NCBI RefSeq assembly: GCF_028641065.1
Contig: NC_073378.1
Coordinates: 69,006,001 to 69,070,000 of the forward strand
Origin: Leucoraja erinacea
Lineage: Eukaryota
DNA length: 64,000 nucleotides
Direction of reading: 5' to 3'
This document shows positions 2,101 to 54,560 of this stretch, piece by piece. Under the pieces are notes generated by a model that saw nothing but the letters and a program-made list of their open reading frames with translations, was not told the origin of the DNA and searched no databases. Each line of letters opens with the position of its first letter. Position 1 is the stretch's first letter. Made by a program: the position numbers and the translations under genes.

Positions 2101-2810
2101 GTTCACGATCCCTCCCATTATATCTGTCTGAAGAACGGACCTGAAACATCATCCAGCCATTCTTTCCACAGATACTGCCTGACCTTTTGAGTTCCTCCTG
2201 CATGTAGTGTTTTACAGGAGACTGTACAGATTCTTTATTTCCATAATCCACATAATTCGATTTATGTGCTGTCTCGTCATGCAATGTAGATCACCTTTTA
2301 CCTGCTTCCCAGACATAAACCAGGCTTTAGTAGTGAAGATATAGGAAGCTGAGCTCAATGCATGGGCCACAGACTACAATTGGCACTCTACTATCTCCAG
2401 AGATTGGATATATGCCTACCATATATCACGTCCACATTCAAAGCCCATGAGTTAGAGCTCAAGTGACTCACATTGTATAGGGAAGAACCTGGTGTCAATG
2501 CGGCAAAGTTGTGTACCCTGACGTAATGTACAGTCTGTCAGGTCCTGTCAACCTTTATTTCAGCAATCTTTGATATTCTCATCCCAAGAGTGCTCTATTT
2601 TTTGTGAACTAAATTCAAACAGTTTAGCTTCGAATAAGGTTTCCTTTAAGATTTATTGTCAATGGAAAACTCTCTAATAAATTAAGTGTTTTATCCAATC
2701 ATTTCTCTGATCTTCTGATGAGATACATCTCTTTGTCAACCTTTGGTGTGTCACTACTGTAAGTTTAGAAAATACTGTATATCCTTCTGTACTGAAATTA
2801 AAACATATTT

Positions 2811-3137
2811 TAGTTTTGGTTAGTTTAGAGGTACTGTGCGGGAACAAACCTATCGGCCCACCGAGTCCGCACCGACCAGAGATCCCCTCATACTAACACT
2901 ACCCTACATACACGCGGGACAATTTACACATACACCAAGCCAATTACGTACATACCTGCTCGTCTTTGGAGTGTGGGAAGAAACCAAATATCTTGGAGAA
3001 AACCCACGTGGTTACGGGAGAACGTACAAACTCGGTACAGACTCCATACAGACGGCACCCGTAGACGGGATTGAACCCGGGTTTCCGGTGCTGAAAGCGC
3101 TGTAAGGCAGCAAGTCTACCTCTGCACCACCATGACA
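2811..3137 (-). mobile_element. HE1-type tRNA-derived V-SINE
   Basis: Reverse complement matches the copy at 38494 (tRNA-like head with GGGTTCAATCC, CTCCAAAGACG core, CTAAA tail). Confidence 0.85.
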
Positions 3138-4104
3138 CAAAACTATATGGTGGATTAAATTTTGGATATTGTGTATACATTTAGAATACATGGGTAATCA
3201 CATGGAGCTCACTTTTATGAATATTTACAGCGAGAAGCAGGGCATTTGACTCCTCAGGAACATGTCATAGTTCATGCAATGCCTGAACCTATAGCTTACT
3301 TTTACCTCCACCCTCATTAATGTATCCTTCTGTTCTGTTCTCTGTCTGTGTGCATCAAGAACCCATAGTATCTGCCTCAATTACTCCTTGTGGTAATACA
3401 TTTGGTCTGATTGATTCCCCCATTTCTATTGATTTACTAGTGGCCATCTTATATTTATACAGTAGCTCCTGGTCCTCTGGTCCTCTGGTCCTCATTTCAT
3501 CTGGAAGCTTTCTGTCTGTGTCTAGATCATCAAATCATTTTGTTAAAGTAACCGTTCAGGTTGTGCTGAGCAAGTTCATCAATTAGAACACCATTATCAC
3601 ATATCAATGCTTTTATGAGGATTGACTTCCCTGACCTGGAGAAACTAGGAATAGAGAGCACTGTGTCTCAGAATAAAGGGGCCACACAAGGCCAGCATTT
3701 ACTGTCCATCAATAATTGCCCTTGGGGAAATGGCAGTGAGCTGTCTTCTTAAACTGCAGCAATCCTTTTGTTAAAGTACTCTCAAGGCAGTATTGGTGAG
3801 CGAGTTCCCAGATATAAACCCAGTAATAATGAAGCAATTATTTCCATGTCAAGGTGGTACCTGTCTTGGAGGGGAACCTGGGGGGTGGTGGTGCTACCAT
3901 GAACCAGAGGCTTTTATTCTTTTTGATCTGTTTGCTCAGAGCTGTTGGATAGAGACGAGTAGCTGCAATGCATTTCATAGATGGTATAGACCGGAAACTC
4001 AGTAGACATATGATAGAGGAAGCAAATGCTTGGAATTAAGGTTTGAAGTCATAAAAATAGCCTTTAGAAATAAGGATCTGTGGATGCTGGTTTTCAAAGA
4101 AAAG

Positions 4105-5045
4105 ACTCAAAGTACTGAAGTGTCTAAGTGGGTCAAGCAGCATCTCTGGAGAGCACAGATCGGTGAAGTTTTGGGGTGGGATAGGTGGACGGGGAAAGGA
4201 CCAGATGAATTCTATCCTTGTCCTGTCTGGGAGTGAGAGCAGAACCATGGGATGCAGAGGAGCCGAAGGTGAGGGATCCATCTGTGACAGAAGGAGGAAA
4301 CTACCTTCACTAAAGAAAAAATATATCCCAGATATCTTAAACTGGAAAGCCTCATCTTTGGAGCAGATGTGGTGGAGACAGAGAAATTGAAAGTATGGGA
4401 TAGCTTATTTGCAAGAGGCAAGGTGGGAGGAGATGTGATCCAGATAACTATAGGGGGTGGTGGATTTGTAGTGGAAGTCTGTCAATAGTACATCCCCTGT
4501 GATGGAGACAGAAAGATCAAGAAAACGGAGAGATGCGTCAGAGATAGTCCAAGTGAATTTGAGGACAGGGTAGAAGTTATTGGCAAAGTTAATGAAATTA
4601 GCGATTTCTACACACGTGCAGTGGGCAGCCTTCATGTAGTCATTACCGTAGCAGAGAAAGAGTAGGGGGATGGTGCCAGTGCACGTTTTGAACAAGGACT
4701 ATTCAACGTAGTAAAAACAAAAAGCCAAACATCGCTGGGTCCCATCTAAGTGCCCATAGCTGCACCTTTAACGAAGAAAGTGAGAGGAATCAAAAGAGAA
4801 GTTGATGAGGATGAGGACAAGTTTTCTCTGGTGGAGGAGTGTGTTAATAGAAGGAAATAGATTGGGGTCTCTGTTCAAGGAAGAACCGGAGGGCCTTGAG
4901 ACCTTCTTGGTGGGGGGTATAAAGGAACTGAACATCTATGGTAAAGATGCCAAGGGGGCCTAGAAATTGAAAGCTATATAAATTGAACAGTTGAAGGGAA
5001 TTTGAGGTGGCTCGGATGTAGGTCAGAAGCGAGTACATTTGTGGA
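4105..5045 (-). mobile_element. Penelope-like retroelement relic (RT plus C-terminal region)
   Basis: Minus-strand peptides HQEGLKALRFFLEQR and FINFANNFYPVLKFTWTISDASLRFLDLSVSI...YLDHISSH, typical of Penelope-like RT; many stops and frameshifts. Confidence 0.85.
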
Positions 5046-5599
5046 AGGGAAAAAGTGGATTGTTTTGTTCTGAGTGCTGTTGAGATTCTCATGTGTTGTT
5101 GGAGCTGTACTCATCCGGACAGCTTTGGCTAAGTTGAGTGTAAATTTTTTCAAGCCAAGAGTTGAAAATCTTTAGAAATGTTTAACCTGGGATGATGTTG
5201 TTAATGTTGGTCTGGATACATAAGCTCTGCCATGGACTACATTCAAGTTGGTGCTTTGGCATAAATGCAATTAAGGAATTGGAGTGAAAGAGGATGTGGC
5301 ATTAATGAAAGCCTGAGTTTGCTGCAGGGGCTGAATGGCTATTTTCTCCTTCAACTTTTTTTTTCCTGTTATGGTTTTAAAGAAACAATAAAGCTGAGAA
5401 ATTTGGTTTAATTTTATTTTGGTGCTTTTAACAGGTGATGCGCAACAATGCTGACACACTCTCCTAACAAAATGTTGACATGGGGAAAGGACACAAAGTG
5501 CTGGGATAACTCAGTGGGTCAGGTAACATAATTGGAGAATATGGATTGGTGACAATTTGGGTCGAGACCCTTGTTCAGATTTCTGATTATTCTCACTTT

Positions 5600-5945
5600 T
5601 GGAGCTTCGATCGCCCCGAAGCGGGAGCTTCGACTGCTGGCTGCGGCAGCTTCGATCGCCCCGACAGCTGATTCAACAGACCCAACCGCAGGAGAATTAA
5701 GAGGAAGAAGATTTGACTTTTTTGTCTTCCATCCAGTGAGGAATGTAGGGAATCCACTGTGGTGGATGTTTATGTTAACTTTTATGTTGTTGTGTGTCTT
5801 GTTGCTTTTTTTTTTTTTTTCATTTGCTGTATGGTAACTCACATACAAAGATACTAGAGCAGAGCTCTATTATCTCTGCTCACATATCACTGTACCTTAA
5901 TTGTTACATCTGACAATAAAAGACTTTTGAAACTTTCAAAACTTC
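5600..5945 (+). repeat. Unclassified SINE-like repeat with L2/Rex1-type 3' tail
   Basis: Repeated GCTTCGATCGCCCCGA motif, then ACTGTACC...TGACAATAAA and a short tandem tail. Confidence 0.45.
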
Positions 5946-6160
5946 AAATTCAGAAATGGGATTTTTTTTTGTTCCTGGCACAGAGACTGGCGCTGTCAGG
6001 AACCAATGGAAAAGGATCACAAATTTGAAATGGTCACTTCATGGCAGTGACAACACAACAGAAAAGACCAACAATAACAGGAGGGGAAAATATCTGTCCT
6101 CATCATATTGCTCACAGCATCCTACCCAGCGGTCAACCTCACAGATTACCAAATCGGTAC

Positions 6161-6360
6161 TGGGGCACAGCGGTAGAGTTATTGCCTTTCAGCGCCAGAG
6201 ACCCAGTTTCCTCCCACACTCCAAAGACGTAATTGGCTTGGTAAAATTGTAAATTGTCCTTAGCGTGTGTAGGATAGTGTTAGTGTGCGGGGATCATTGG
6301 TCAGCATGGACTCGGTAGGCCTAAGGACCAGTTTCAACACTGTATCTCCAAAAAAACTAA
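6161..6360 (+). mobile_element. HE1-type V-SINE, internally deleted
   Basis: GGCACAGCGGTAGAGTT head, TTTCCTCCCACACTCCAAAGACGT core, CTAAA tail. Confidence 0.8.
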
Positions 6361-9300
6361 AATAAATAAGTGGAATACAAACCATGCCAAGGCAGAATGT
6401 ACTCAGTACTAAGACAAAGAACACAGCATATTTGTGTGGTGCATTGTTTGGAAAGCCTGTAATAAGCACTACAAAGTCCAGGGATAAACAAAAGCAAGCA
6501 TGCACACCACAGAAAACAGCCACACACAGGCAGACATGAAAACACTTATGTCCCACTCAAGACCCTTTAATTTATATCTCCCAACAGCTTGCATGATTTG
6601 CTACTTGTATTTATTTGTATTTATAAATAAGGATGATAAGTTGCAGATTATTTTACTCCAATTTCTGTCAGTAATGCAAGGATGAGAATAGCAGATATTG
6701 ATGGTGTTGCCATGGGTGCAAACATTGTAAAACCATTAGCCAGGCAACTAATAGCTGGAAGTGCCTGGTCAAACGTTCCCAAGAGACACGTCTTCCATCA
6801 AAAATGATCACTGTCATCTTAAAGAGTGTGCAACATACCTTATGTGTGATTTGCACACAAATAAGGGTACAAATGGGACCCATTTCTTTGCCTATGTTTC
6901 ATGGTCATCAATCTTTAAGTCATTCTTCCTAACGGGAGATCCATTTTATCTGGCAGAATGACAGTGAGAAGATTTGTCTTTTCTCAAACTAGCAACTTAT
7001 ATCACTGAGATAGACTTTTAATAGCTATGCTCCTGTGTAAAATTAGGTCGCAGATCTGGACGGAGTCCATCAGTGAAATCTTCGACATCCATTTCCATTG
7101 AAACAAAGTTGAAAATTAACTCACGTTTTTCAGAAATGTCTCTTCTTCTAATAATATATGAACACCTTCAGTGGAGCTCTCGTGGAACTGAAAATGACTC
7201 AACATTGGTGATAATCCTACAAAATATCTTTAAAGTATTTGTGACAGAGCTGTAAACAAGGTACAGCCCTATCATTCAAACAGATGATTTTTTTTGGTTG
7301 CATATTCTTTTTAAAATAAAGCAACTTACGTTTTCACACGTGAAGTAATTGAGATTTAAGACTGAAAACAAAGATTTGTCAGCTCTCCTTAGAGAAACCA
7401 TTCATCTCTGTACATTTTTGGGGGTGATAATGTATGCTGGCTGCAAGGAAAACTGATTTAATCATTGATTTTGTTTCCACCAAGCTGCCGATGTACATTG
7501 TTTATGAGAAGCCAGCCTTACAAAGGGTGCTGGAGTGAAACGATTTATAAGCTGCACTCAATTCAGTTTGCATATCACTTACAACTGCCACAGAGCTCCG
7601 GGAGGGAAGTCAGTGGGGGCGAAATGCGCAAGCAATCTGTTTATAAGGATTAATAATAAAACGTACAAAACAGCCATATTCTGAATTTTGGGGATAATAC
7701 CCAATGGTTTCCAACATGCAGTTGCAATATTTGCTCTGATATTTTTCAATTCTCACATTCCGTTTTGGTCTTGGGGCAAATCATTATGGAAATGTGTCCA
7801 TGAGTTATTTATCTCCAGTTCTTGTGTAACAATATGCTATTACAATCAGGGAAGGCCATAGATTTATGAGGGAAATCTGTTAAAAAAAAAAACAACATGT
7901 TGGCAAGGACTGGACTGGATTAGACAGTTTTTCAGGGAAATTTCAATACCTTTCAAGAGTTTCAGAAACCTTCATTTTAAGAAAAAAAATCTTACTGCTG
8001 GCATTAAAAAAATAATTTGGTTTCATATAACTCCTTTCGAATAACATGAAGGATTTTACAGGCACATGAGCTTTGCTTTGGAAGTATATCTGCTGTTATA
8101 ATTCAAATAACATACAGAGGCAATTTGCATAAAGCAAGATCCCATAAACAGCAGCATGATAATAAAAATCAAAAAATGCAAACTGACATAACATGTGAAG
8201 ATATTGGAGATATTTCACAACTGTGACAGAACATTCGCAAAATAAAACAAGATTTAGGTTCCAAGTTGATGCCACGTGCATTAGATTAATTTCACTCCAT
8301 AAATGCTGTCTGGCCAACAAGGTAATAAAGACAAGGACAAAATATTTTATATATAGTATTTTTTAAGAGATTGATATTAACTGGCATACCAGTTAAATTG
8401 CTCTTGTTTCTCTAACATAGAGTGGTAAGGAATCTTTTACATCCACCAAAGAGAAAATGGTCTCTCTGTAGTGTGTAAATCAAAAGATTGTGTGAATGCT
8501 GCGGTGCTAGTTCAATTAATCAATCTACAGATTTATGCTCAAGTCCCTGCAATATGATTACAATCTTCTAGTTCGGTAATAAAAATATAGCAACTAAGTC
8601 ATTACTGATAGTGATAGTGAGGTATTGAGAATGTTGAGCACATTTCCTGACTGACAAGTGGATTTCCCAACCATCTCCACCCTGGCTGCTTGATGGATTT
8701 TGCTACACATGCATCATACTTTTATGGAGATATTGATGCTTTCAGCAGTTACATGCAGATGTTTGTATCCATTCTCTTTCTTCTAAAATATCAGTAGCAA
8801 AGTAGTCTTAAAGCTGCACTCACTGGGTGGTTGGCAGTGGACCTAATTAGAGAAATTGAGACAAATCGATACAAAGAAAAGCCCAGAAATGCAAGAGTTT
8901 TTGTTTTTATTTTTTCTTCTGGTATTCGCAGGCAAAGATTAGGCCTCAGCACTACTATATGGCCTCCTGAAGCCTTTCTCAGGTATTGTAAAGCTTCAGT
9001 TGCACTTATTTCAGTTTAGTTTTTGACATTCAGTGTTCACAACACGGAATCTTCTGCACTGGATAAACAAAATGCAGATTGAGTTATTGCAAAATACCTG
9101 TGTTCCATCTGTAGAAGTGATTCTGAGCTTTCATGTCCTGCCACTGATATATCTGCCTGTGTTCTCCTCACAGTTAAATAGGGCCTAATGCAAGGTTGAG
9201 GAACAATGCCTCATTTTCAATCTTGGCACATGATAGTACTTCAGGTTTAATATCAAAATACTCCAACTCAAGGTAATGCGCTCTCTTTCTCTGTATCTGT

Positions 9301-9904: not shown

Positions 9905-11464
9905 ACATATTTTTATAATCTCCACCCCTCTCCAATCACCACGTAACACCCACTTACAGCCTGACCCTAGTCTGCAAATACGGGGCCCTCATCGACTACC
10001 CACCCCCTCCTTGCTGCCCATCATCTGTCTGGCCACTTCTGCATCACCAACAATTGAAAATGAGGAGGCTATTCAGAAGACAGAAAAGCATGAAGTCTCC
10101 AGGTCAGGACAATGTTCCTTCAAGCTCTGTGCCAATCCACTGGTTATCGGGCTACATAGACATTTTCAACCAGTTCCTGCAAACCTGCACTGTCCATGTC
10201 GGCTTCAAAGTCTCCACTAATGCCCCGTACCCAAAAATACAAGGATTACTGGTCTTAATGACTACAGGACTGTTGCACTGACCTCTGTAGTTATGAAGAC
10301 CCTTGAAAGACAGCTGAAAAATATCACAAACCCCCTGCTGGACTCTCTACAGTTTGCATATTGGGCCAATAGATCAGTGGCTGACGCAGAGCTATTACAC
10401 TCCAAACTCTCCCAGAGACCTTGCCTGATCCCCTCTGTCAGTGGATCACCAACTTCCTGACAGACAGGAATTAGCATGTGAGACTGGGAGAGCACATCTC
10501 GGACCCGCAGACCCTCAGCATAGGTGCACCGCAAGGTTGCATGCTCTCCCCTCTCCTTTACTCTCTCTAAACCAACGACTGCTCCTCCACTGATTCCTCT
10601 GATAAGCTTCTCAAGTTTGCGGACGACACAACGCTGATTGAACAGATCCAGGATGGGGAGGAATCCACTTACAGACAGGAAGCGACACAGCTGGTGTCCT
10701 GGTGCCTTCGTAACAACCTGGAGCTCATTGCTCTTAAGACAATGGAATTAATAGTAGACTTTAGGAGTGCTCCCCATCCCCTCCCCCCACTCACCATCAA
10801 CAACACCACAGTCACATCTGTGGAGTCCGTTATGTTCCTTGGAACCATCATCTCCAAGGACAGTCAAAAAGGCACAACAGAGGATTATTTCATGCGGCAG
10901 CTGAGGAAACACAATCTGCCACAGGCAATGATGGTCAAATTCTATACTGCCGTAGATTCTGTCTTCGCCATCTCCATCATGGTCTGGTTTAGCTCAGCCA
11001 CCAAGCATGACATCCGGAGGCTGCAGCGAATCGTTCGATCAGCTGAGAAGGTTGTTGGCAGCAACCTTCTCCCCATTGATGAACTGAACACTGCAAGGGC
11101 CAGGAAGCGAGCAGATAAGACCACCTCTGACCCCTGTCACCCTGGCCACAAACTCTTTGAAGCACTTCCTTCTGGAAGGTGACTCCGGACCATCAAAGCC
11201 GCCATAGCCAGACAAAAAAACAGCTTTTTGCCACGAGTAGTAGCTCTACACAATAACCAGATGTCTGTAGCTTCCTTTTGCTCTGGTATTTTATTTCATG
11301 CACATGTTTAAACTATAATGTTTTATTCTTAATGTTTTAATGTTTTATGTTTTATTCTTAATGGTTTACTGTATGTTGTATTGTTACTTGCGATCGGAGC
11401 ACCAAGGCGAATTCCTTGTATGTGTACCTACTTGGCCAATAAACTTATCATTCATTCATTCATT
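9905..11464 (+). mobile_element. Rex1-type LINE, 5'-truncated and degenerate
   Basis: NDYRTVALTS, LQFAY, QGCMLSPLL, KFADDTT, SWCLRNNLEL, HPGHKLFEALPSGR; ends with AATAAA and a (CATT)n tail. Confidence 0.88.
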
Positions 11465-12763: not shown

Positions 12764-12990
12764 TGTCATAATTTCACCATCCCTCCGACCTTCCTCTTTC
12801 AGATGCAGAAAGGTCAGTCCTCAACACATTTAATGTATATAATGTAATTAGCATATGTTATGTCTTGTGCAAGGGGACGCATGCGCTAGAAGAGACTCAT
12901 GGTGGCGTCCAGCAATAAAGAAGCTTGTTAGTTTACTCCTGTATCTGAGAGTTCTTTTGAGTCAGTTCCAAGTACCCAAAATACACTACA
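12764..12990 (+). repeat. 5' LTR
   Basis: TGTCATAAT...ATACACTACA with internal AATAAA; repeated at 16933-17159. Confidence 0.9.
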
Positions 12991-12992
12991 AT

Positions 12993-13010
12993 TGGCGACG
13001 AGGATGGGAT
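12993..13010 (+). promoter_or_regulatory. Primer-binding site, tRNA-Ser(GCT)
   Basis: TGGCGACGAGGATGGGAT is the reverse complement of the vertebrate tRNA-Ser(GCT) 3' end ...ATCCCATCCTCGTCGCCA; lies 2 nt after the LTR end. Confidence 0.85.
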
Positions 13011-13769
13011 AGAGTTTGTGAACTCGCCCACAGAACTGTTTTGCAACACACAGGATTGTTTAACAGTTTAAACTGTAGATGCGGAGTTGTATTGTAGTTG
13101 TTTGTGACCGGGACAAGAGAGGCCTGCAGATCCCACTATGCCGGGGACTGCATTTAAAACATCAGCTGTACAAGTCGGCGAGTTTTGTGAGGCTATCTCT
13201 ACATTGTGTCTACATGGCAAGATGTCGTCCTTCGGATTGTCACTCATTTTAGAGTTTTCTTTTGTCAAATTCCTCAAGCTGAATAGTCTTTGTATAAGTT
13301 TTAGGTGAATTGTTACACCAAAACACACAACAACAGCACGAAGAGGATAAAAGAACAGAAAAGGAAAGAAGAAGGACTGTCAGAAAAAAATAAAGTTGTG
13401 TTTGGAAACAAAGTGGAACGGCACCAAGCCAAAAGATTTGGCGCCAAACGATTTTGGATTGGCGCCAAAGAAAAGAAAGGTTGGAACAGGAAGCAAGGAA
13501 AACAAGTGGGGCAGTAAGTAAGTGTCATCGAAGAAAGCAGCCGAAAGCTGGAAGCCTAACCAGCAGGACAGCGACAGCGTCAACTTACCTGGAACATTTT
13601 CCAGGGCTGTGTAGGTAAGGCAAAGGGGCAGAAGAGGCCCAGCAGCTGCCACCGACTTTGGACGTTTTACAGCGCTGTGTAGCCCACAACCAGGCCCAGG
13701 AGCCGCCAACGACGTCGAGTGAGGGCCTAGTACCGGGTAGGTCACGGACAGGTACAGTGAAGCCACCGA

Positions 13770-14330
13770 CGAAACAGAGTAAGCCCGGCTGGGAGAAGAG
13801 TCAACCCGGTTGAGGGAGAAAGCCGGCTGCGTGAGAAGCGGACCAGCAGAGTAAATAAAAAAAATAAAAAACTGGCTGCGAGAGGAGCGGACCGGTCGTG
13901 AGAGAAAGCCCAGTCACAAGAGACAGCCGTGAGCAGAGAAAGCCTGGTTGGGAGCAGAGTCAGCCCAACTGTGAGCAGAAAAGAGGGTCCGGCTGCACAA
14001 GGAAGCGGATTGGCCGAGGGGGAAAGCCCGGATGTGAGAAGAAGTCCAGCCCCGAACAAAGAGTGGGTCCGCACGAGAGAAGCAGAACAGCACTCAAGCA
14101 CTTCAGCCCGATCGGGAATAGAGTCAACCCGGTCGTGAGGGCTGTGGAGACAGCGAGCAGGCAAATCAGCAGAGCAGCAGTAGTCAACTTGGCAGCGAGC
14201 CAATGGCAGCAAAAGTAACGGTGAAGCCCGGAGGAGCCAGCAAAAGCAGCAAAAGTGGAGGTCTGGCGAGGCCAGCAGCAAAAGTACCGGTGGGGACAGC
14301 TCGAGAGGTCGAGAAGGCACTGGAGTCCAT
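13770..14330 (+). repeat. Degenerate purine/GC-rich tandem repeats in the LTR element leader
   Basis: Recurring AGAGTCAACCCGG, GAGAAAGCCC, GTGAGCAGA and CAGCAAAAG motifs. Confidence 0.6.
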
Positions 14331-14595
14331 AGGCCGACAATATAACGGGACTGTTTGGATGTAATGCATTGGTCACTGTTATTAATAGTAAATCTGTGTG
14401 CATAGCAGGAATATGATTAAAATGTTCTAAATGTCTATTAACATGAAATGTTGGTTAATAGTATAAATGTATTATTATAAGAATTAGTAATAGTCAGTGG
14501 GCTGGATCACTTCTTAGTGTGTAGAAGGATTAAGTCTAATACAGAATACACAGTGAGAGAAAAGAAGATAGTGCACCTGAATAGCAACAGGTAAC

Positions 14596-15204
14596 ATGGC
14601 TTTTCAAATTGTAGGAAATGTGCCCCAGTTAAAATATGGGTGTAATTTTGAGAAATGGACCAAAGTCTTGGAGGCTTGTTTCATTTCCAATGATATCGCT
14701 GCAGAGGAGAAGAAGAAAGCATGGTTCATATTAGGCTTAGGAAGAGAGGGTTATCAGACCTTACATATGTTACTGCTGCCAGCCAAGCCCACAGATAAAA
14801 TGTATGAGGAGTGTAAGGAGGCTTTAATGGCTTATTTCTCGCCAAAAGCTCCAAGGGTATCCAGAGGCAAGGAGCCTGAACTAAAGAGGACAGAGAGTCT
14901 CTCAAAGGACCAAGGTCAAGTGCAAAAAGACAAAGGTCAAGTGCAAAAGTACAAAGGTCAAGTGCAAAAGGACAACGGTCAAATGCAAAAGGACAAAGGT
15001 CAAGTGCAAAAGGACAAAGGTCAAATGCAAAAGGACAAAGGTCAAGTGCAAAGGGACACAAGTCAAATGCAAAGGGACACAAATCAAGTGCAAAGGGACA
15101 CAAGTCAAGTGCAAAGGGACACAAGTCAAGTGCAAAATGACACAGGTCAAGTGCTAAGGGACAAAGGGCAAATGCAAAGTGGCAGAAGTCAAGGGCAAAG
15201 ATAA
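14596..15204 (+). CDS. Gypsy (Mag-like) Gag N-terminal domain plus Q-rich heptad repeat
   Basis: WTKVLEACFISNDIAAEEKKKAWFILGLGREGYQTLHMLLLPAKPTDKMYEECKEALMAYFSPK fits the Mag/K02A2.6-type Gag N-terminal pattern; followed by 13 KDKGQVQ-like repeats. Confidence 0.75.
   Translation: MAFQIVGNVPQLKYGCNFEKWTKVLEACFISNDIAAEEKKKAWFILGLGREGYQTLHMLLLPAKPTDKMYEECKEALMAYFSPKAPRVSRGKEPELKRTESLSKDQGQVQKDKGQVQKYKGQVQKDNGQMQKDKGQVQKDKGQMQKDKGQVQRDTSQMQRDTNQVQRDTSQVQRDTSQVQNDTGQVLRDKGQMQSGRSQGQR
14905..15177 (+). repeat. 21-bp coding minisatellite, 13 units
   Basis: Consensus AAGGACAAAGGTCAAGTGCAA; in frame; drifts from KDKGQVQ to RDTSQVQ. Confidence 0.95.
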
Positions 15205-16418
15205 ATTGTCATCCAAAGGGAAACCCTAGCTATTCAAGCTGCATTCAGGGCTATGAATGTATGGAAAGAAATCCGGAACAAACAGAAGGCAGCAATGGTA
15301 ATACAAGCAGCATTTAGAAGGCATAAAGTATATCGTCAATACAAGGCAATGAGATTGGCAGCTATACTAGTACAAACCCATTATAGGACACCTTCAAATG
15401 GAAAGTGATCGCAAAACTTACATGAAGGTACGCAGAAGCGTTGTACTGCTTCAGGCAGCCTACCGTGGCATGCTTGTTTCGAAGGCAATTGCGGGGCATG
15501 CATAAATCTGTCAGGGTCCTACAGACTTATTATCAGATGTATAAACAGCATCAGTATTTTAAGAAACTACGCTGGTCTGCCATTGCTGTACCGCAACGAT
15601 ACAGAGCATGCCAGATAAGAGATGTCCAAGTGAGACAGTATAAGAGTTTGAGAGAAGCAGTGGTTTGTATTCAGGCCTTATGCCGCGGGATCAAAGCCAG
15701 AGTATTGGTAGAGAAAACCAAGGCAGCATGCTGTATTAAGTCATTCATAAGAATGTGCATTACAAGAAAGCATTTATTGATGCAAAAGGCGGCTGTAGTC
15801 ACTCTGCAAGCTGCATACCGTGGTTACCGATTAAGGGTATGGCACAGAGCTATGCGACAAGCAGTCATTTCGATCCAGAGATGCTACAAAGCATGTAAAA
15901 TAGGGCATTCCCAGTTTGTGCAATATCAACCAATAAGGGATGCAACTATTACCTTTCAAACTGCCTACAAGAGTATTGTGGTTAGGCAGTGGGTTAAGCA
16001 AAAGAGAGCTACTGTACTCTATATGAGTTGGTATAGGAAAGACCTAAGGAGACAAATAGATGCACAACAGAAAAGGCTGAAACGATACAAAAGGCTTAAA
16101 CGATATAGGAAAGACTTCCTCAAACCGATTTATATAGCAGTTGTAGTGCAGTATCACTACCGTGCTTATGTAGTAAGAGAAATATACCAAGCGCAAATCA
16201 AAGCCATTGCTGTATTGCAAGGACAGTATAGATCCTACTTCTTGATGAATAACCAGAAAGGTGATTTAAGAAGACAAATAGAGGAACAGCAGAAAAGGCT
16301 TAAACGTTGCGAAGAACGGTTAAATAAATGTGTGACGATGAGCAAAAAGCTGTTAACAGAAAAGTCTAAAGAAGAGAAGCTTGTTGGTCGAGACAAAAGT
16401 GTGCAGGACCGATTGTGA
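15205..16418 (+). pseudogene. Captured ASPM-like IQ calmodulin-binding repeat array plus coiled-coil tail (frameshifted)
   Basis: [99 protein letters not shown] with roughly 23-27 aa spacing and basic linkers; frameshifts near 15390 and 15478. Confidence 0.8.
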
Positions 16419-16886
16419 TTAGGACACTTCAGTATAGTCCAGCATGGAGCTTCCTTCACTGAGCAATGGACAAATGTTTATGCATTGCAGAATGTCCTTA
16501 TACAACAAGAGCAGATAAATATGCAGCACCAGGAAATTGAGCAACTGAAAAACTAAAACCAGCAGTCATGTGTCAGATCCCACCTACAAATAAGGAACAG
16601 AAACAGAAGAAATGTTAACTTTAGCGGAATATCAAGAACAGGAAGAAATCTGCAAATTAGATTAGGATATTTAAAAAGGGAAGAGGCAGAGATACGGGTA
16701 GAGCTAGAGTGATTAGAAAGATGAGTGGAATGAACCCTTATAAGTGCTAAGTTTAGATACAGTTTACAGTTATGAGGATGTAATGTCAGATGACTGTAAT
16801 AATATAATTTTGCAACTGCGTGTTAATCAATTATATATAATGTAGTAGAAATGGTGTTATTCGCCTCCAAGCTAAATGGGGAGCAG

Positions 16887-17159
16887 TGTAATGTATATAA
16901 TGTAAATGGTGTTACCCTCCAAGTAAAATTATTGTCATAATTGCACCATCCCGCCGACCTTCCTCTTTCAGATGCAGAAAGGTCAGTCCTCAACACATTT
17001 AATATATATAATGTAATTAGCGTATGTTATGTCTTGTGCGAGGGGACGCATGTGCTAGAAGAGACTCAAGGTGGCATCCTGCAATAAAGAAGCTTGTTAG
17101 TTTACTCCTGTACCTGAGAGTTCTTTTGAGTCAGTTCCAAGTACCCAAAATACACTACT
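16887..17159 (+). repeat. 3' LTR
   Basis: Starts TGTAATGTAT directly after the PPT-like AAATGGGGAGCAG; 16933-17159 matches the 5' LTR. Confidence 0.85.
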
Positions 17160-17450: not shown

Positions 17451-18861
17451 TTACTCAGTTATTGAAGTTCCTCAAATCTAAATTGATTAGAATTTAAATT
17501 TAGGATGATAAAATGTTATTTGGATCAGAAGAAAGAGTAGATGCAGGATTCAAAACATCCCCTATTCCTTTTCTCCAGAGATACAGCCTGTGTCACACTC
17601 CAGACACTTGAAACTCTTTCCACACTCCTCCCCTGAGCTACTAGGAATAACACCTGCATTTAATCTGTTCCCCCAATCTATCACTTGGTATAAATACCCG
17701 TGATCATCAGCTATTGGGTGCCGACAATTCAGTTCTGCATTCTGTTGGTTCCAGGTCTATATTTTTCGGTTCCTTGCCTATATCTTTTTGTTCCATTCGT
17801 GTTTGCATTTTACTTCGGAGTCACGTGAGTGACTACGTGAAGAAGCCCGCTTCCACGCATGCGTGCCATATCGCTACACGCATTGCAACGAGTCACACAG
17901 GGGGGAACGGCGTTCCCCAAGCGGGAGATTTGAAAGTCGGGAACAGCAGGTAAGAGACTCTGCGTTCCTTTTTACTACTTACTTTTAGGAGGCTGCGGAA
18001 AGCCGGCGGGGAGACCCGTGGAGGGCGAGCAGCCAGCAGCAGCAACAGCATGAGTTTCCCTGGAGGGGAACAACCTGAGCCCGACTTTGCTCCCGCACCG
18101 GCAAAATTCACCTCTCGGCCGGGCGGGAAGCAAAGTAAAAAAGGTCCCTATGCCAGTCTCAAACGAGACTGGCTTGGGACCAGTCGCTAGCAGCCAGCAC
18201 AGAGGCTGCGGGACAGACAGCTCGGACCAGCGAGGGGCTCGAAACGCTCAGCGAGTGCAGCGGCACTTGTGGAGTCGGAACGGGACGTTCGGGCTGAAAA
18301 CCTTGTTCACAAGGTAAGCACCAGGGTCCAGGGGATCTATAGGAACAGCCGGGGTTACCGGCTGCGGAACTGCCGCGAAGGACCAGGCCCGTGAACACCG
18401 GGGTCGGTCCAAGCGGCTTGAACCCGACACAGGGAACGACGGTCACCGGCGGGAGAAGGAAAGTCGGGAACAGCAGGTAAGAGACCCTGCGTTTCCTTCA
18501 ACTTACCTTTCTAGGTGCAGACATGGACCAGGTCCATGTAAGGTGCAGAAGGCCGGCGGGAGAACCGCGGAGGAGCGGCAGTAGCAGCGGCAGCGGCAGC
18601 AGCAGTGGCAGCCGGCAGTTGCAGTAGCACAGACAGCAGCAGTGGCAGCTGGCACTTCGTGAGGAGCTGGCAACGGCAGGAGCAGCATGGGCACATCGAT
18701 TCCCGGAAGGGGAAAAACACCTGTGCCCAACTTCGCTCCAGCATGGTGAGAAAGTTCATTTCTCGGCAGCAAAGGACTTTGCAGTTGACTGGCTGCAATC
18801 TACTACAAGGGACCAGTATGTGAGTACCAGGATCGGTCCCAGCGGGGTTTTAGTTACAATA

Positions 18862-29269: not shown

Positions 29270-31426
29270 TGTAGTGGCCTGGACGAGGTCAGGAAAAGGC
29301 CAGACGCCCGGCGGGTTCAAACAGTAGTCTTTTAATCCCTACAGCGAGAGTACACCACACACACATCTCGAGAGCACTAAACTCAGGGTCGTCTAGAAAC
29401 CCCGTGGCAGACCAATGCCCCGTCCCTCAATCGGTGAGGGGGCTGATCCATGGAGTGGCCTACCCCCCAGGGACCGTCACAGACCCCCCCCCCAAGTACC
29501 CGAGGGACGAAACGAACAGGAGGGCGTAGACGGCGGCCAGCCCGGGTGCACACCACGCCCGGCCCCGGAACACGCGACTGACCAACAGTTGCAGGGGACG
29601 GAGTAGCCAGAGAAGGAGGTACCCTAGACAGAGGCCTCCCTCGCTTACGGGGCTGTGCTAACAGCACTGGCTGATCAATATCAATATGTGCTGGCTTCAG
29701 CCGCGCAACTGAACCAGTCTCTTGCCGACCCCCCATGTCCAGGATGAAAGTGGATGAGCCATGTTCCAGGACCCGGAAGGGACCCTCGTACGGCCGCTGG
29801 AGAGGTGTCCAATGCACATCCCTGTGCAGGAAGACAAACTGGCAGTCCTCCAGAGCAGAGGGTACGTGCAGACGGAAGGACCCATGACAAGACGTGGGCA
29901 ACAGCGCCAGCTTGCCCACCATCTGCCGAAGACTTTGAAGAGCGTCCGAAGGCTGCTCCACCTGGCCACATGCCGGCGGGATGAATTCCCCAGTCACCAT
30001 CAACAGAGACCCATACACCTACTCGGCGGAGGTGGAGGGCGCTTGACATCCACGATCAGTGAATGGGCTCGAAGGAAGTCGGCGCCCAGCAGCGGCTGGG
30101 AAACGTCGGCAATGATGAACTTCCACGAATAGGAGCTGCGGCCAAAGTTGAGGGGGATGGTGTGAAACCCATAGGCGAGAATAGCACTCCCATTCGCCAT
30201 AGTGAGGAGGGAGCCTTGTTTGCCCACATGGATGTCAGCGATGGAGGGAGGCAGAACACTCACTTCCGCACCAGTGCCCACGAGGAATCGACCTACAGTG
30301 TGGCGATCCCAGGCGAAGACACGATGAATTGTGCCGGCCGGCAAAGGAATCACTGACGACTGGCCCCTTTGTTTCCCGGGAATAAACAGGGTGGGCGACA
30401 TAGCCTGGCTGCAGCTCCCCACAACAATGGTAATAGCAGCAACCCCCTTTGCTGGCGTTTGGTGGAACTGCAGGCGAATTAGGCTGGTTTGAATGCCAGT
30501 GACCTCTCCTGGCATTGGGTGGAACTGCAGGCTGGCCGTGCTGGAAGGACGTGCCTGCAGTGGAATGGGCAATGGCGACCGGATTTTGCCGCAGGGGGCC
30601 GACTGGGAGCAGTGGAAACACGGTCGATAGCGTTCCCGACCTGCTCTGAGCCTCCAAATGCTGCAGGAAGGACGGTCAGCACATCCAGATTCTGATGGCG
30701 GGAATTCCACACCTCGTCGGCGTGTTCACCCAATGCCCGCATGTCGGTAAATGGATCCCTGGTGAGCTGCAGGCGGATGTTGGGCGGTAGCTGCTGCAGG
30801 TAGGCGTATTTAAATAGAAAACAATGTTCATGGTCTCCCATTAGGGTGAGCATGTCTTCCAGGAGGGCAGACGGCCGGCGGTCGCCCAGGCCGTCCATTC
30901 TGAAAATCCGAGCTGCCCACTCGGAGTCACCTAGGCCAAACCTCCTGATAAGGAATTCCTTAAGGCCCCTATATTTATTTGCTACCGGGGGGGCCATGAG
31001 GAAAGGCTTAACTCGCCTCGCAGTCGCTTGGTCAAGCGCGCCAACTACTTAATAGTATTTTGTCTCATCTGCTGTAATACCTCTCACAGCAAACTGTGCC
31101 TCTGGCCTGCTGGAACCAGATGTCAGGTTCTTCGGTCCACAAAGTTGGGAGTTTCAGCGCAACAGCGTTATTATCCATCACGATGCGTGATGAACGGCGT
31201 GGGGTCACCAGTGTAGTGGCCTGGACGAGGTCAGGAAAAGGCCAGATGCCAGGCGGGTTCAAACAGTAGTCTTTTAATCACAACAGCAAGAGCACACCAC
31301 ACACACACCTCGAGAGAGCACTAAACTAAGGGTCGTCTGGAAACCCCGTGGCAGACCAATGCCCCTGTCCCTCAATCGGCGAGGGGGCTGATCCAAGGAG
31401 TGGCCTACCCCCCAGGGACCGCCACA
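29270..31426 (-). mobile_element. Gypsy LTR retrotransposon (CsRn1-like), internally deleted
   Basis: LTRs 29270-29481 and 31212-31426 (TG...CA); 4-bp TSD GTAT; tRNA-Trp-like PBS TGGTGACCCC (31201-31210, minus); G-run PPT; gag VALKLPTLW...WFQQA; protease FLVGTGAEVSVLP; integrase C-terminus PYEGPFRV...RLKPAH; RT and RNase H absent. Confidence 0.93.
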
Positions 31427-53089: not shown

Positions 53090-54560
53090 TGGACAATAGA
53101 CAATAGATGCAGGAGTAGGCCATTTGACCCATCATGCCAGCACCGCCATTCAATGCGATCATGGCTGATCATCCAAAATCAGTACCCTGTTCCTGCTTTC
53201 TCCCCATATCCCTGGACCACCATTTTAAGAGCTCTGTCTAGCTCTCTCTTGAAAGCATCCAGGGAACCAGCTTCCACCGCCCTCTGTAGCAGAGAATTCA
53301 CAACTATCTGTGTGAAAACGTTTTTCTTTATCTCCGGTCTAAATGGCTTACCCCTTATTCTTAAACTGTTGCCACTGGTTCTGGACTCCGCCAACATCGG
53401 GAATAAGTTTCCTGCCTCTAGCGTATCCAAACCCTTAATAATTTTACATGTTTCAATACGATATCCTCTCATCCTTCTAAATTCCAGAATATACAAGCCC
53501 AGCCGCTCCATTCTATCAACATATGACAGTCCCGCCATCCCAGGAATTAACCTGGTGAACGTACGCTGCACTCCCTCAATAGCAAGAATGCCCTTCCTCA
53601 AATTGGGAGACAAAAACTGCACACAATACTCCAGGTGTGGTCTCACCAGGGCACTGTGCAACTGCATAAGGACCTCTTTGCTCCTATACTCAACTCCTCT
53701 TGCACTAAAAGCCAACACGTCATTTGTTTTCTTCACTGCCTGCTGTACCTGCATGCTTACTTTAATTGACAGATGAACAAGGACCCCCAGATCGCATTGT
53801 ACTTCCCCTTTTCCCAACTTGACTCCATTTAGATAATAATCTGCCTTCCTGTTTTTGCCACCAAAGTGGATAACCTCACACTGATCCACATTAAACTGCA
53901 TCTGCCATGCATCTGCCACCTCAACCAAACTGTCCAAGTCACCCTGCATCCTCATAGCAACCATTTCACAGATCACACTGCCACCCAGTTTTGTGTCATC
54001 TGCAAATTTGCTAATGTTACTTTGAATCCCTCATCTAAATCATGAATGTATATTGCAAATAGCTGCAGTGCCAGCACCGAGCCTTGCGGTACCCCACTAG
54101 TCAGTGCCTGCCATTCTGAAAGGGACCCGTTAATCCCTACTCTTTGTTTCCTGTCTACTAACCAATTTTCTATCCATGGCAGCACCCTACCCCCAAAACC
54201 ATGTGCTCTAATTTTGCCCACTAATCTCCTATCTGGCACTTTATCAAATGCTTTTTGATCAAAGGCTCTCCCTTGTCCATTTTCCCTGTTACATCCTCAA
54301 AAAATTCCGGAAGATTAGTCAAGCATGATTTCCCCTTCGTAAATCCATGCTGACTCAGACCGATCCTGTTACCGCTATCCAAATGTACTGCTATTTCAAC
54401 TTTTATAATTTACTCCAGCATCTTCCCCACCACCGATGTCAGCCAAACTGGTCTATAATTCCCTGTTTTCTTTCTCCAGCCTTTCTTAAAAAGAGGGATA
54501 ACATTAGCTACCCTCCAATCCACAGGAACTGATCCTGAATCTATAGAACATTGGAAACTG
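53090..54560 (-). mobile_element. CR1/HER1 LINE, 5'-truncated
   Basis: SGVPQGSVL, WQMQFNVDQC, LVRPHLEYCVQF (ORFs 53179-53976 and 53973-54239); 3' tail at ~53090-53105. Confidence 0.92.

Follow-up and report, generated by a model that had tools for sequence, protein, structure and literature searches.

Retroelements with long terminal repeats (LTRs) can carry host genes along with them. Acutely transforming retroviruses depend on a helper and carry a stump of Gag in frame with a host regulatory gene, and these Gag-onc fusions are somatic and short-lived. Capture of host genes by LTR elements is also known from maize Bs1, from animal retrocopies and from crocodilian endogenous retroviruses (ERVs). 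Here, we describe a Ty3/Gypsy family in the skate Leucoraja erinacea in which a stump of Gag is joined in frame to fragments of two host regulators, ASPM and TLK2. One copy lies at positions 12764–17159 of a 64,000-nucleotide (nt) stretch, referred to below as the window (NC_073378.1, positions 69,006,001–69,070,000; contig C2 of our analysis). Unlike the Gag-onc fusions, the family is germline, has no env, and carries no catalytic domain, the TLK2 kinase being absent. A sequence-only reading of the window had proposed that part of host ASPM was taken up by a Gypsy element, which then transposed non-autonomously and encoded Gag fused to IQ motifs. That proposal holds across the family, with ASPM as the best match, and a second host gene must now be added to it.

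How does the family compare with the closest described systems? First, maize Bs1 is, as described in PMC5131818, a non-autonomous LTR element with several host mRNAs in a chimeric open reading frame (ORF) and with secondary retroposition, and the skate family resembles it in all these respects. Bs1 itself contains parts of three host genes, one of them out of frame, and is present in 1–5 copies (PMC5131818). By contrast, the skate family is found in a vertebrate, has 193 junction matches, has both captures in frame with Gag, and has an ORF that was remodelled by successive lineages. Second, the animal LTR-mediated retrocopies described in the same source are similar in that an mRNA replaces the internal ORFs, switch points fall at short shared sequences, and multi-gene chimeras occur (PMC5131818). 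Third, the crocodilian ERVs that captured KIT ligand or nectin3 are reported as vertebrate LTR elements in which a captured host mRNA is under purifying selection in several copies (PMC4299795). These are retroviruses in which a single, nearly complete gene forms an ORF of its own or takes the place of env (PMC4299795), whereas the skate element is a Gypsy element that has lost all of pol and has fragments of two intracellular proteins fused to Gag. Fourth, Drosophila telomeric retrotransposons are described as having captured silencing-linked host genes, with capture accompanying high copy number (PMC13534243). They are non-LTR elements, and their nxf2, piwi and aub fragments of 140–235 bp are thought to work via piRNAs (PMC13534243); the skate family captured ~1.5 kb of mRNA, largely protein-coding. 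It is the combination that is unusual here: a Gag stump continues in frame into parts of two intracellular regulators of the host, the family has ~200 copies, and its remodelling under frame constraint can still be read. No published description of the family was found in a literature search that was thin on subscription journals; a repeat-library entry may exist, because Repbase and Dfam were outside the search.

The family is large. A DNA search of the 2.19-Gb genome with the IQ region gave 267 candidates, and all 40 that were scored match, mostly over the full length and, the window itself apart, at 87–94% identity. A 25-nt pattern spanning the ASPM-TLK2 junction, with up to two mismatches allowed, has 193 genomic matches, and its reversed control has none. 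The number of loci is slightly lower than 193, because at least one locus carries two junction matches. The IQ segment is therefore present in sibling elements, and a later insertion into a single copy is rejected. We retrieved 54 copies from the top of the searches, which are not a random sample and which, with the window, make 55 copies examined. No pol match was found in 52 of the 55 loci, and the three exceptions are 22%–32% matches outside the element coordinates; the family is non-autonomous, without its own pol and without a whole Gag. The family LTR is ~162 bp, and 23 of 25 young two-LTR copies begin with TG. Among these 25, the expected target-site duplications (TSDs) are present: a 5-bp duplication is exact in 13 and has at most one mismatch in 16. 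In the 22 young copies whose LTRs align well (three poorly aligned pairs were left out), the median divergence between the two LTRs is 6.5 differences over 160 positions, or ~2% per LTR, which suggests an old family in a slowly evolving lineage. Copies with unusual ends also occur. In L033, L041, L045 and L063, sequence from the polypurine tract (PPT) side precedes the 5′ LTR, as in tandem or extended-LTR copies, and L059 has an LTR pair with no differences in 160 positions although it lacks a matching TSD and is interrupted by several insertions, as might follow gene conversion or rearrangement.

The paired TG...CA LTRs, primer binding site (PBS), PPT, TSD and parental pol order establish a Ty3/Gypsy origin. 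We take the clade to be Mag/K02A2.6-like. Elements of that clade have a tRNA-Ser primer, two CCHC knuckles, short LTRs and a 5-bp TSD. A tRNA-Ser primer, a CCHC knuckle region (in old copies), a short LTR and a 5-bp TSD are all present in the skate family or its progenitor. The 55 copies examined, out of 193 junction matches, decay at the neutral private rate, which bears on whether they could represent a domesticated PNMA/Arc-like Gag gene.

The progenitor can be recognized in L148, a decayed full element found by pairing an integrase match with a 60% Gag match. Its LTR is ~80% alike, its PBS and PPT are the same, and its Gag is 57% identical. The pol order in L148 is RVT_1, RT_RNaseH, rve, and protease matches are found in two of its three relatives (L149–L151), namely L149 and L151. 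Several other routes to a helper failed. Searching longer proteins for the Gag stump gave nothing (40 candidates), and none of 17 long-ORF integrase loci matched the element. One of the 17, L143, has the PBS in common with it and a similar PPT, but a different LTR and Gag. L143 (G000 C11) and about ten relatives form another Gypsy family primed by tRNA-Ser, with LTRs that are 97% identical. Other retroelements seen along the way include a young LTR family (L134, L136, L138, L139, L145 and L147) with LTR pairs up to 99% alike, a single ORF of ~1,260 amino acids, and no TGG-type tRNA primer site after the 5′ LTR. Retrovirus-like pol ORFs, some with 1,330–1,340 stop-free codons, occur at L131–L133, L140–L142, L144 and L146, with several equal-score copies, suggesting recent activity.

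Comparison with the progenitor shows that a Gypsy element swapped everything between the Gag zinc knuckles and the pol stop for host mRNA, taking part of the ASPM IQ exon first and then spliced TLK2. In old copies, a CCA(A/G)CAG common to both partners marks the in-frame passage from Gag (...CDAVRAYQQ) to ASPM (QYRAHV), and a common TGTG marks the join of ASPM to TLK2; both of these upstream joins keep the frame. TLK2 returns to progenitor sequence at the end of pol. Joins at short shared sequences, together with the loss of introns, fit the template-switch model set out in PMC5131818. Capture likely occurred by template switching of reverse transcriptase, and the progenitor family likely mobilized the element in trans.

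The IQ array matches the final portion of the IQ exon in host ASPM, with 82%–83% DNA identity, and its best database matches are ASPM. At 96 ASPM sites that distinguish skate from stingray, eight copies match skate at 50–67 and stingray at 10–18, which places the donor within the skate lineage. Because the ASPM piece sits inside a single exon, we only infer its RNA origin. The window is not the true ASPM locus: the single ASH match and the IQ exon are both on contig C10. The host IQ exon (L071:2215–8125, G000 C10) is itself divided into two overlapping ORFs in different frames (2215–4908 and 4838–8125), reflecting either an assembly error or a real break, and its 3′ part contains four near-identical internal repeats of ~200 codons each.

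The coiled-coil tail noted in the sequence-only reading is a second capture, a host TLK2 mRNA. It matched TLK2 in PDB (5o0y, E 9e-14) and aligns to five host exons spread over ~7.5 kb; all four introns are absent and the splicing is exact. The TLK2 exons of the host translate exactly to residues 192–379 of P0078, a protein labelled as little skate, which identifies the host as a skate. The captured piece begins at host residue ~193 and the match ends before the kinase, so the kinase domain was not captured. Neither the true TLK2 gene nor an ordinary processed pseudogene fits this arrangement, since there is no kinase, the piece is flanked by ASPM and LTR sequence, and host TLK2 is on C27. A RefSeq protein annotated as “TLK2, partial” (XP_055497199.1, our P0146) is a piece of the element across the ASPM-TLK2 join.

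The order of later events can be read from a tree of the copies, from which six poorly covered copies are omitted. Rooted on the host, the tree is a ladder with backbone support of 0.97–1.0 at several nodes and a star-like young clade. Near the host root are L076, L079, L081 and L084, which keep the Gag zinc-knuckle region and already lack 342 nt of capsid. These old copies are followed by loss of the knuckles and an in-frame 72-nt insertion, then by growth of a 21-bp array, and then by a split into two clades. The insertion contains a second copy of the start of the TLK2 coil and is missing from the oldest copies. In clade M (L061, L062, L064–L067), the spacing from ASPM to TLK2 is ~290–330 nt rather than 165, with further duplication around the join. 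Thus, successive lineages remodelled the ORF, yet kept Gag, ASPM and the first ~90 TLK2 codons open during spread to ~200 loci.

Was this ORF maintained by selection? Substitutions and indels were counted after poorly aligned copies were dropped (1–11 per test). Changes private to one copy look neutral (pN/pS near 1), as expected after insertion. Substitutions fixed along lineages in ASPM and TLK2 include no stops among 79, compared with 25 of 471 private changes (p = 0.036), and their ratio of nonsynonymous to synonymous changes is 52/27, compared with 347/99 (p = 0.031); pooled omega is ~0.55 (p = 0.03). Indels tell a similar story. Over Gag, ASPM and TLK2 codons 1–92, those common to at least four copies are −12 (15 copies), +72 (27 copies) and −3 (5 copies), plus +70 (4 copies), with +72 and +70 being versions of the coil insertion; among the 81 private indels, 20 have a length divisible by three. 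Past TLK2 codon ~96, five of six shared indel classes shift the frame, which serves as an internal control: the first ~90–100 captured TLK2 codons behave as coding sequence and the remainder behaves as a 3′ untranslated region. A frequency test without CpG sites agrees, with p = 0.016 for ASPM, p = 0.012 for TLK codons 3–88, and p = 1 for TLK codons 104–166. The segments that recur in the linker between Gag and ASPM are 93, 21n, 42 or 48, and 57 nt long, all multiples of three. In a post hoc comparison of the Q and R of the IQ cores, the young clade has no change at 16 positions and clade M has one change at 15. Stops are frequent at ASPM codons 139 and 216 and TLK2 codon 53; these are all CGA codons and the stops are spread across clades, so they fit recurrent CpG decay. 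We read these results as retention of the frame during replication of the element, with mild constraint on the amino acids.

It is conceivable that the cargo was neutral, having been captured in frame by chance and then carried by master lineages that went through too few rounds of replication to break the ORF. LTR-mediated retrocopies often have the reading frame preserved when young (14 of 17 in Drosophila, as given in PMC5131818), and the selection p-values are modest and non-independent. We nevertheless consider this very unlikely, given that none of the 79 substitutions fixed along lineages is a stop, that in-frame rearrangements arose several times independently upstream, and that shared frameshifts accumulated downstream in the same captured mRNA.

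The family is transcribed. RNA reads at ≥89% identity were found in all four runs (264, 295, 542 and 317 reads, of 7–18 million read), and the runs carry two organism labels. Most reads come from other copies, since they are 90%–99% like the window, and some are from host ASPM or TLK2, as seen from their loose ends. Coverage spans the ASPM-TLK2 join, and the PPT-LTR joint of the family is visible in some reads. In the most strand-biased run (X15), first mates are mostly from the minus strand, which by the usual convention for stranded libraries means sense RNA and is consistent with sense transcription. These reads show low transcription, as distinct from translation.

Retention of the cargo through spread to ~200 loci suggests that the captured protein helped the element. 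We favor the view that the chimera was translated and useful to the element, with a probability of roughly 0.6. Several observations weigh against this view. Selection on amino acids is weak and patchy: although the pooled estimate is below 1, the segments taken singly in a clade test give weaker results (ASPM omega 0.68, p = 0.28; TLK 0.41, p = 0.057; Gag 0.78, p = 0.76). With CpG sites included, the frequency test gives p = 0.07 for TLK, and shared ASPM transitions show no deficit. The boundary between coding and non-coding TLK2 was picked after the data had been seen. TLK residues that are invariant in 20 host proteins are changed at 10 of 59 positions in each clade, and neither invariant sites nor IQ cores as classes are significantly spared (p = 0.10–0.52). 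Just 17 of the 43 copies compared keep the frame across the Gag-ASPM linker (p = 0.24, tested against one third). Some breaks recur, including the +70 insertion in its four copies and a 2-nt linker loss in four; the first stop of the window copy is also found in L033; and the end of the ORF varies between sub-lineages, with a stop at TLK codon 89 in 14 copies. Expression is low and includes some host reads. Lastly, no intact helper is among the four progenitor copies retrieved, so the progenitor family may now be dormant.

Some of these observations would be explained if only an open frame mattered, with translation guarding the RNA from nonsense-mediated decay or coupling its packaging, and the cargo acting as a length filler. 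Strong frame conservation beside weak amino-acid constraint favors this alternative. The Gag omega, the changed invariant TLK residues, the shifting ORF end and the growth of the linker through a 7-codon minisatellite all point the same way. On the other hand, a length filler does not readily explain a pooled omega below 1, the retention of the IQ Q and R residues, or the gain in frame of a second TLK2 coil start that is retained in almost all later copies examined. We regard this alternative as unlikely, though with a real chance of being correct.

What might a useful chimera do? The likely core of the mechanism is translation of the chimera to the benefit of the element; the details are more speculative. 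The protein might be a rod whose capsid N-terminal handle rides with helper Gag, whose IQ helix might be coated by calmodulin, and whose TLK2 coil might oligomerize the chimera or bind host TLK1/2. Such a rod could conceivably help the RNA or particles of the element in germ cells. ASPM IQ motifs are reported to bind calmodulin in other animals, with microtubule binding assigned to ASH (putatively) and CH (PMC10047693). Targeting to spindle poles, which the sequence-only reading had raised, is weakly placed: the ASH and CH domains described in PMC10047693 were not captured, making direct spindle targeting unlikely. For TLK2, the first coiled coil of the human protein is described as required for binding TLK1 and LC8, and loss of any single coil as not abolishing activity (PMC6023931). 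Depletion of TLK in human cells is reported to desilence heterochromatin and some ERVs (PMC7408502). In principle, the chimera could be an anti-silencing factor, in which the kinase-less TLK2 coil enters TLK1/2 dimers, lowers the TLK-ASF1 histone supply and loosens germline heterochromatin over LTR elements; we consider this quite unlikely. We give similarly long odds to the accompanying suggestion that the IQ rod would be the link to calmodulin and the Gag stump the link to the particle. A TLK decoy is thus possible but unproven. Complex prediction without an alignment, using a 90-residue natural TLK2 piece and host TLK2 residues 155–300, gave a score of 0.00 in both runs, which counts neither for nor against such an interaction.

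The benefit could instead lie in the RNA, if small RNAs from the element target TLK2 or ASPM transcripts, or if the element is protected from silencing because it resembles essential genes. A precedent has been proposed for the Drosophila telomeric elements with nxf2, piwi and aub (PMC13534243), the reported desilencing on TLK loss (PMC7408502) would fit, and most copies examined have kept the non-coding tail of TLK2. However, an RNA-level benefit does not require an open frame, and young copies are ~84%–89% like the host, near the ~79%–82% at which targeting had faded as described in PMC13534243. This explanation is highly improbable.

The window copy illustrates the organization of the family, with all features on the plus strand apart from a host repeat at its edge. 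The sequence-only reading had reported LTRs of 227 bp. The direct repeat it measured is real (12764–12990 and 16933–17159, 11 differences in 227 bp), but as an LTR it is too long, because its first 67 bp are a flank repeat and the family LTR is ~162 bp (TG-TAATG...ACTACA). The flank repeat (12764–12830) is duplicated at 16933–16999 in the window copy only, and similar sequence is found at 15 other loci; the match extends upstream to 12722–12743 in L093, L094, L096 and L097, and LTR matches in sibling copies start only at ~12831. The extra 67 bp are part of a dispersed host repeat that reaches back into the 5′ flank, and the window copy has a duplicate of them in its rearranged 3′ end. The 5′ LTR core (12831–12990), whose leading TG is damaged, is ~80% like the LTR of L148. 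It is followed by the 18-nt tRNA-Ser PBS at 12993–13010, as first read; it matches the 3′ end of host tRNA-Ser(GCT), with 14 exact matches in the genome, and both loci tested were called tRNA-Ser(gct). The 5′ leader (13011–14595) has patchy blastn similarity to the progenitor leader (L148, L150, L151).

The Gag N-terminal ORF previously noted is present at 14596–15201, and only residues 1–84 and a short linker of it are truly Gag; the C-terminal half of the capsid and the zinc knuckles are gone. The 84 codons (14596–14847), the N-terminal part of the capsid, are 57% identical in amino acids and 75% in nucleotides to progenitor Gag. Their neighbors in Atlas are DUF7041 and Retrotrans_gag, and progenitor Gag itself has weak Retrotrans_gag/PNMA matches. 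The linker remnant (14848–14903) follows an in-frame 342-nt deletion of the C-terminal part of the capsid, as seen when old copies are aligned to progenitor L150. Next is the 21-bp (7-codon) tandem array (14904–15199), with 14 units here and a unit number that varies among copies; it seems to resemble ASPM sequence at the fusion point. Part 1 of the captured IQ exon (15165–16043) is 81.8% identical over 896 nt to L071:6950–7843. The net 72-nt in-frame insertion occupies 16041–16103 and holds the second copy of the coil start, 86% identical to the TLK2 exon at L072:446–496. Part 2 of the IQ exon (16104–16263) is 83% identical to L071:7832–7991. About 13 IQ motifs had been counted; the array is real, with Pfam IQ matched in both IQ ORFs, and a pattern search in three frames finds 11 IQ-like motifs. 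The spliced TLK2 segment, with its five exons and host residues ~193–362, lies at 16261–16721. The PPT lies at 16874–16886 and is followed by an aborted 3′ LTR start (16887–16905) and local rearrangement. The 3′ LTR core (17000–17159) has nine differences from the 5′ LTR in 160 positions, and its last bases are altered. This copy is broken, with stops at 15202–15204 and 16416–16418 and frameshifts near 15387 and 15477; it has damaged ends and no clean TSD. As had been claimed, no protease, reverse transcriptase, RNase H or integrase match is found within it. Just 3′ of the element, at 17800–18700, is a GC-rich region that contains a direct repeat of 45 bp as well as tandem repeats rich in CAG/CGG. 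Elsewhere in the window, long ORFs at 919–2187, 10571–11179, 29386–31048 (minus strand) and 53182–54030 (minus strand) look by eye like fragments of long interspersed nuclear elements and other retroelements.

What does the family mean for the biology of these elements and their hosts? First, element copies contaminate skate gene annotation and RNA-seq data for ASPM and TLK2. Second, the order of events is readable from the copies, and the captured mRNA provides its own non-coding control. Third, known captures by LTR elements are mostly low-copy, whereas this Gypsy family carried two regulators through a long run of lineages. This makes it testable in a vertebrate whether proteins captured from the host are put to use by transposons in spreading. 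If the anti-silencing role were true, the chimera would be a vertebrate transposon suppressor of silencing built by gene theft.

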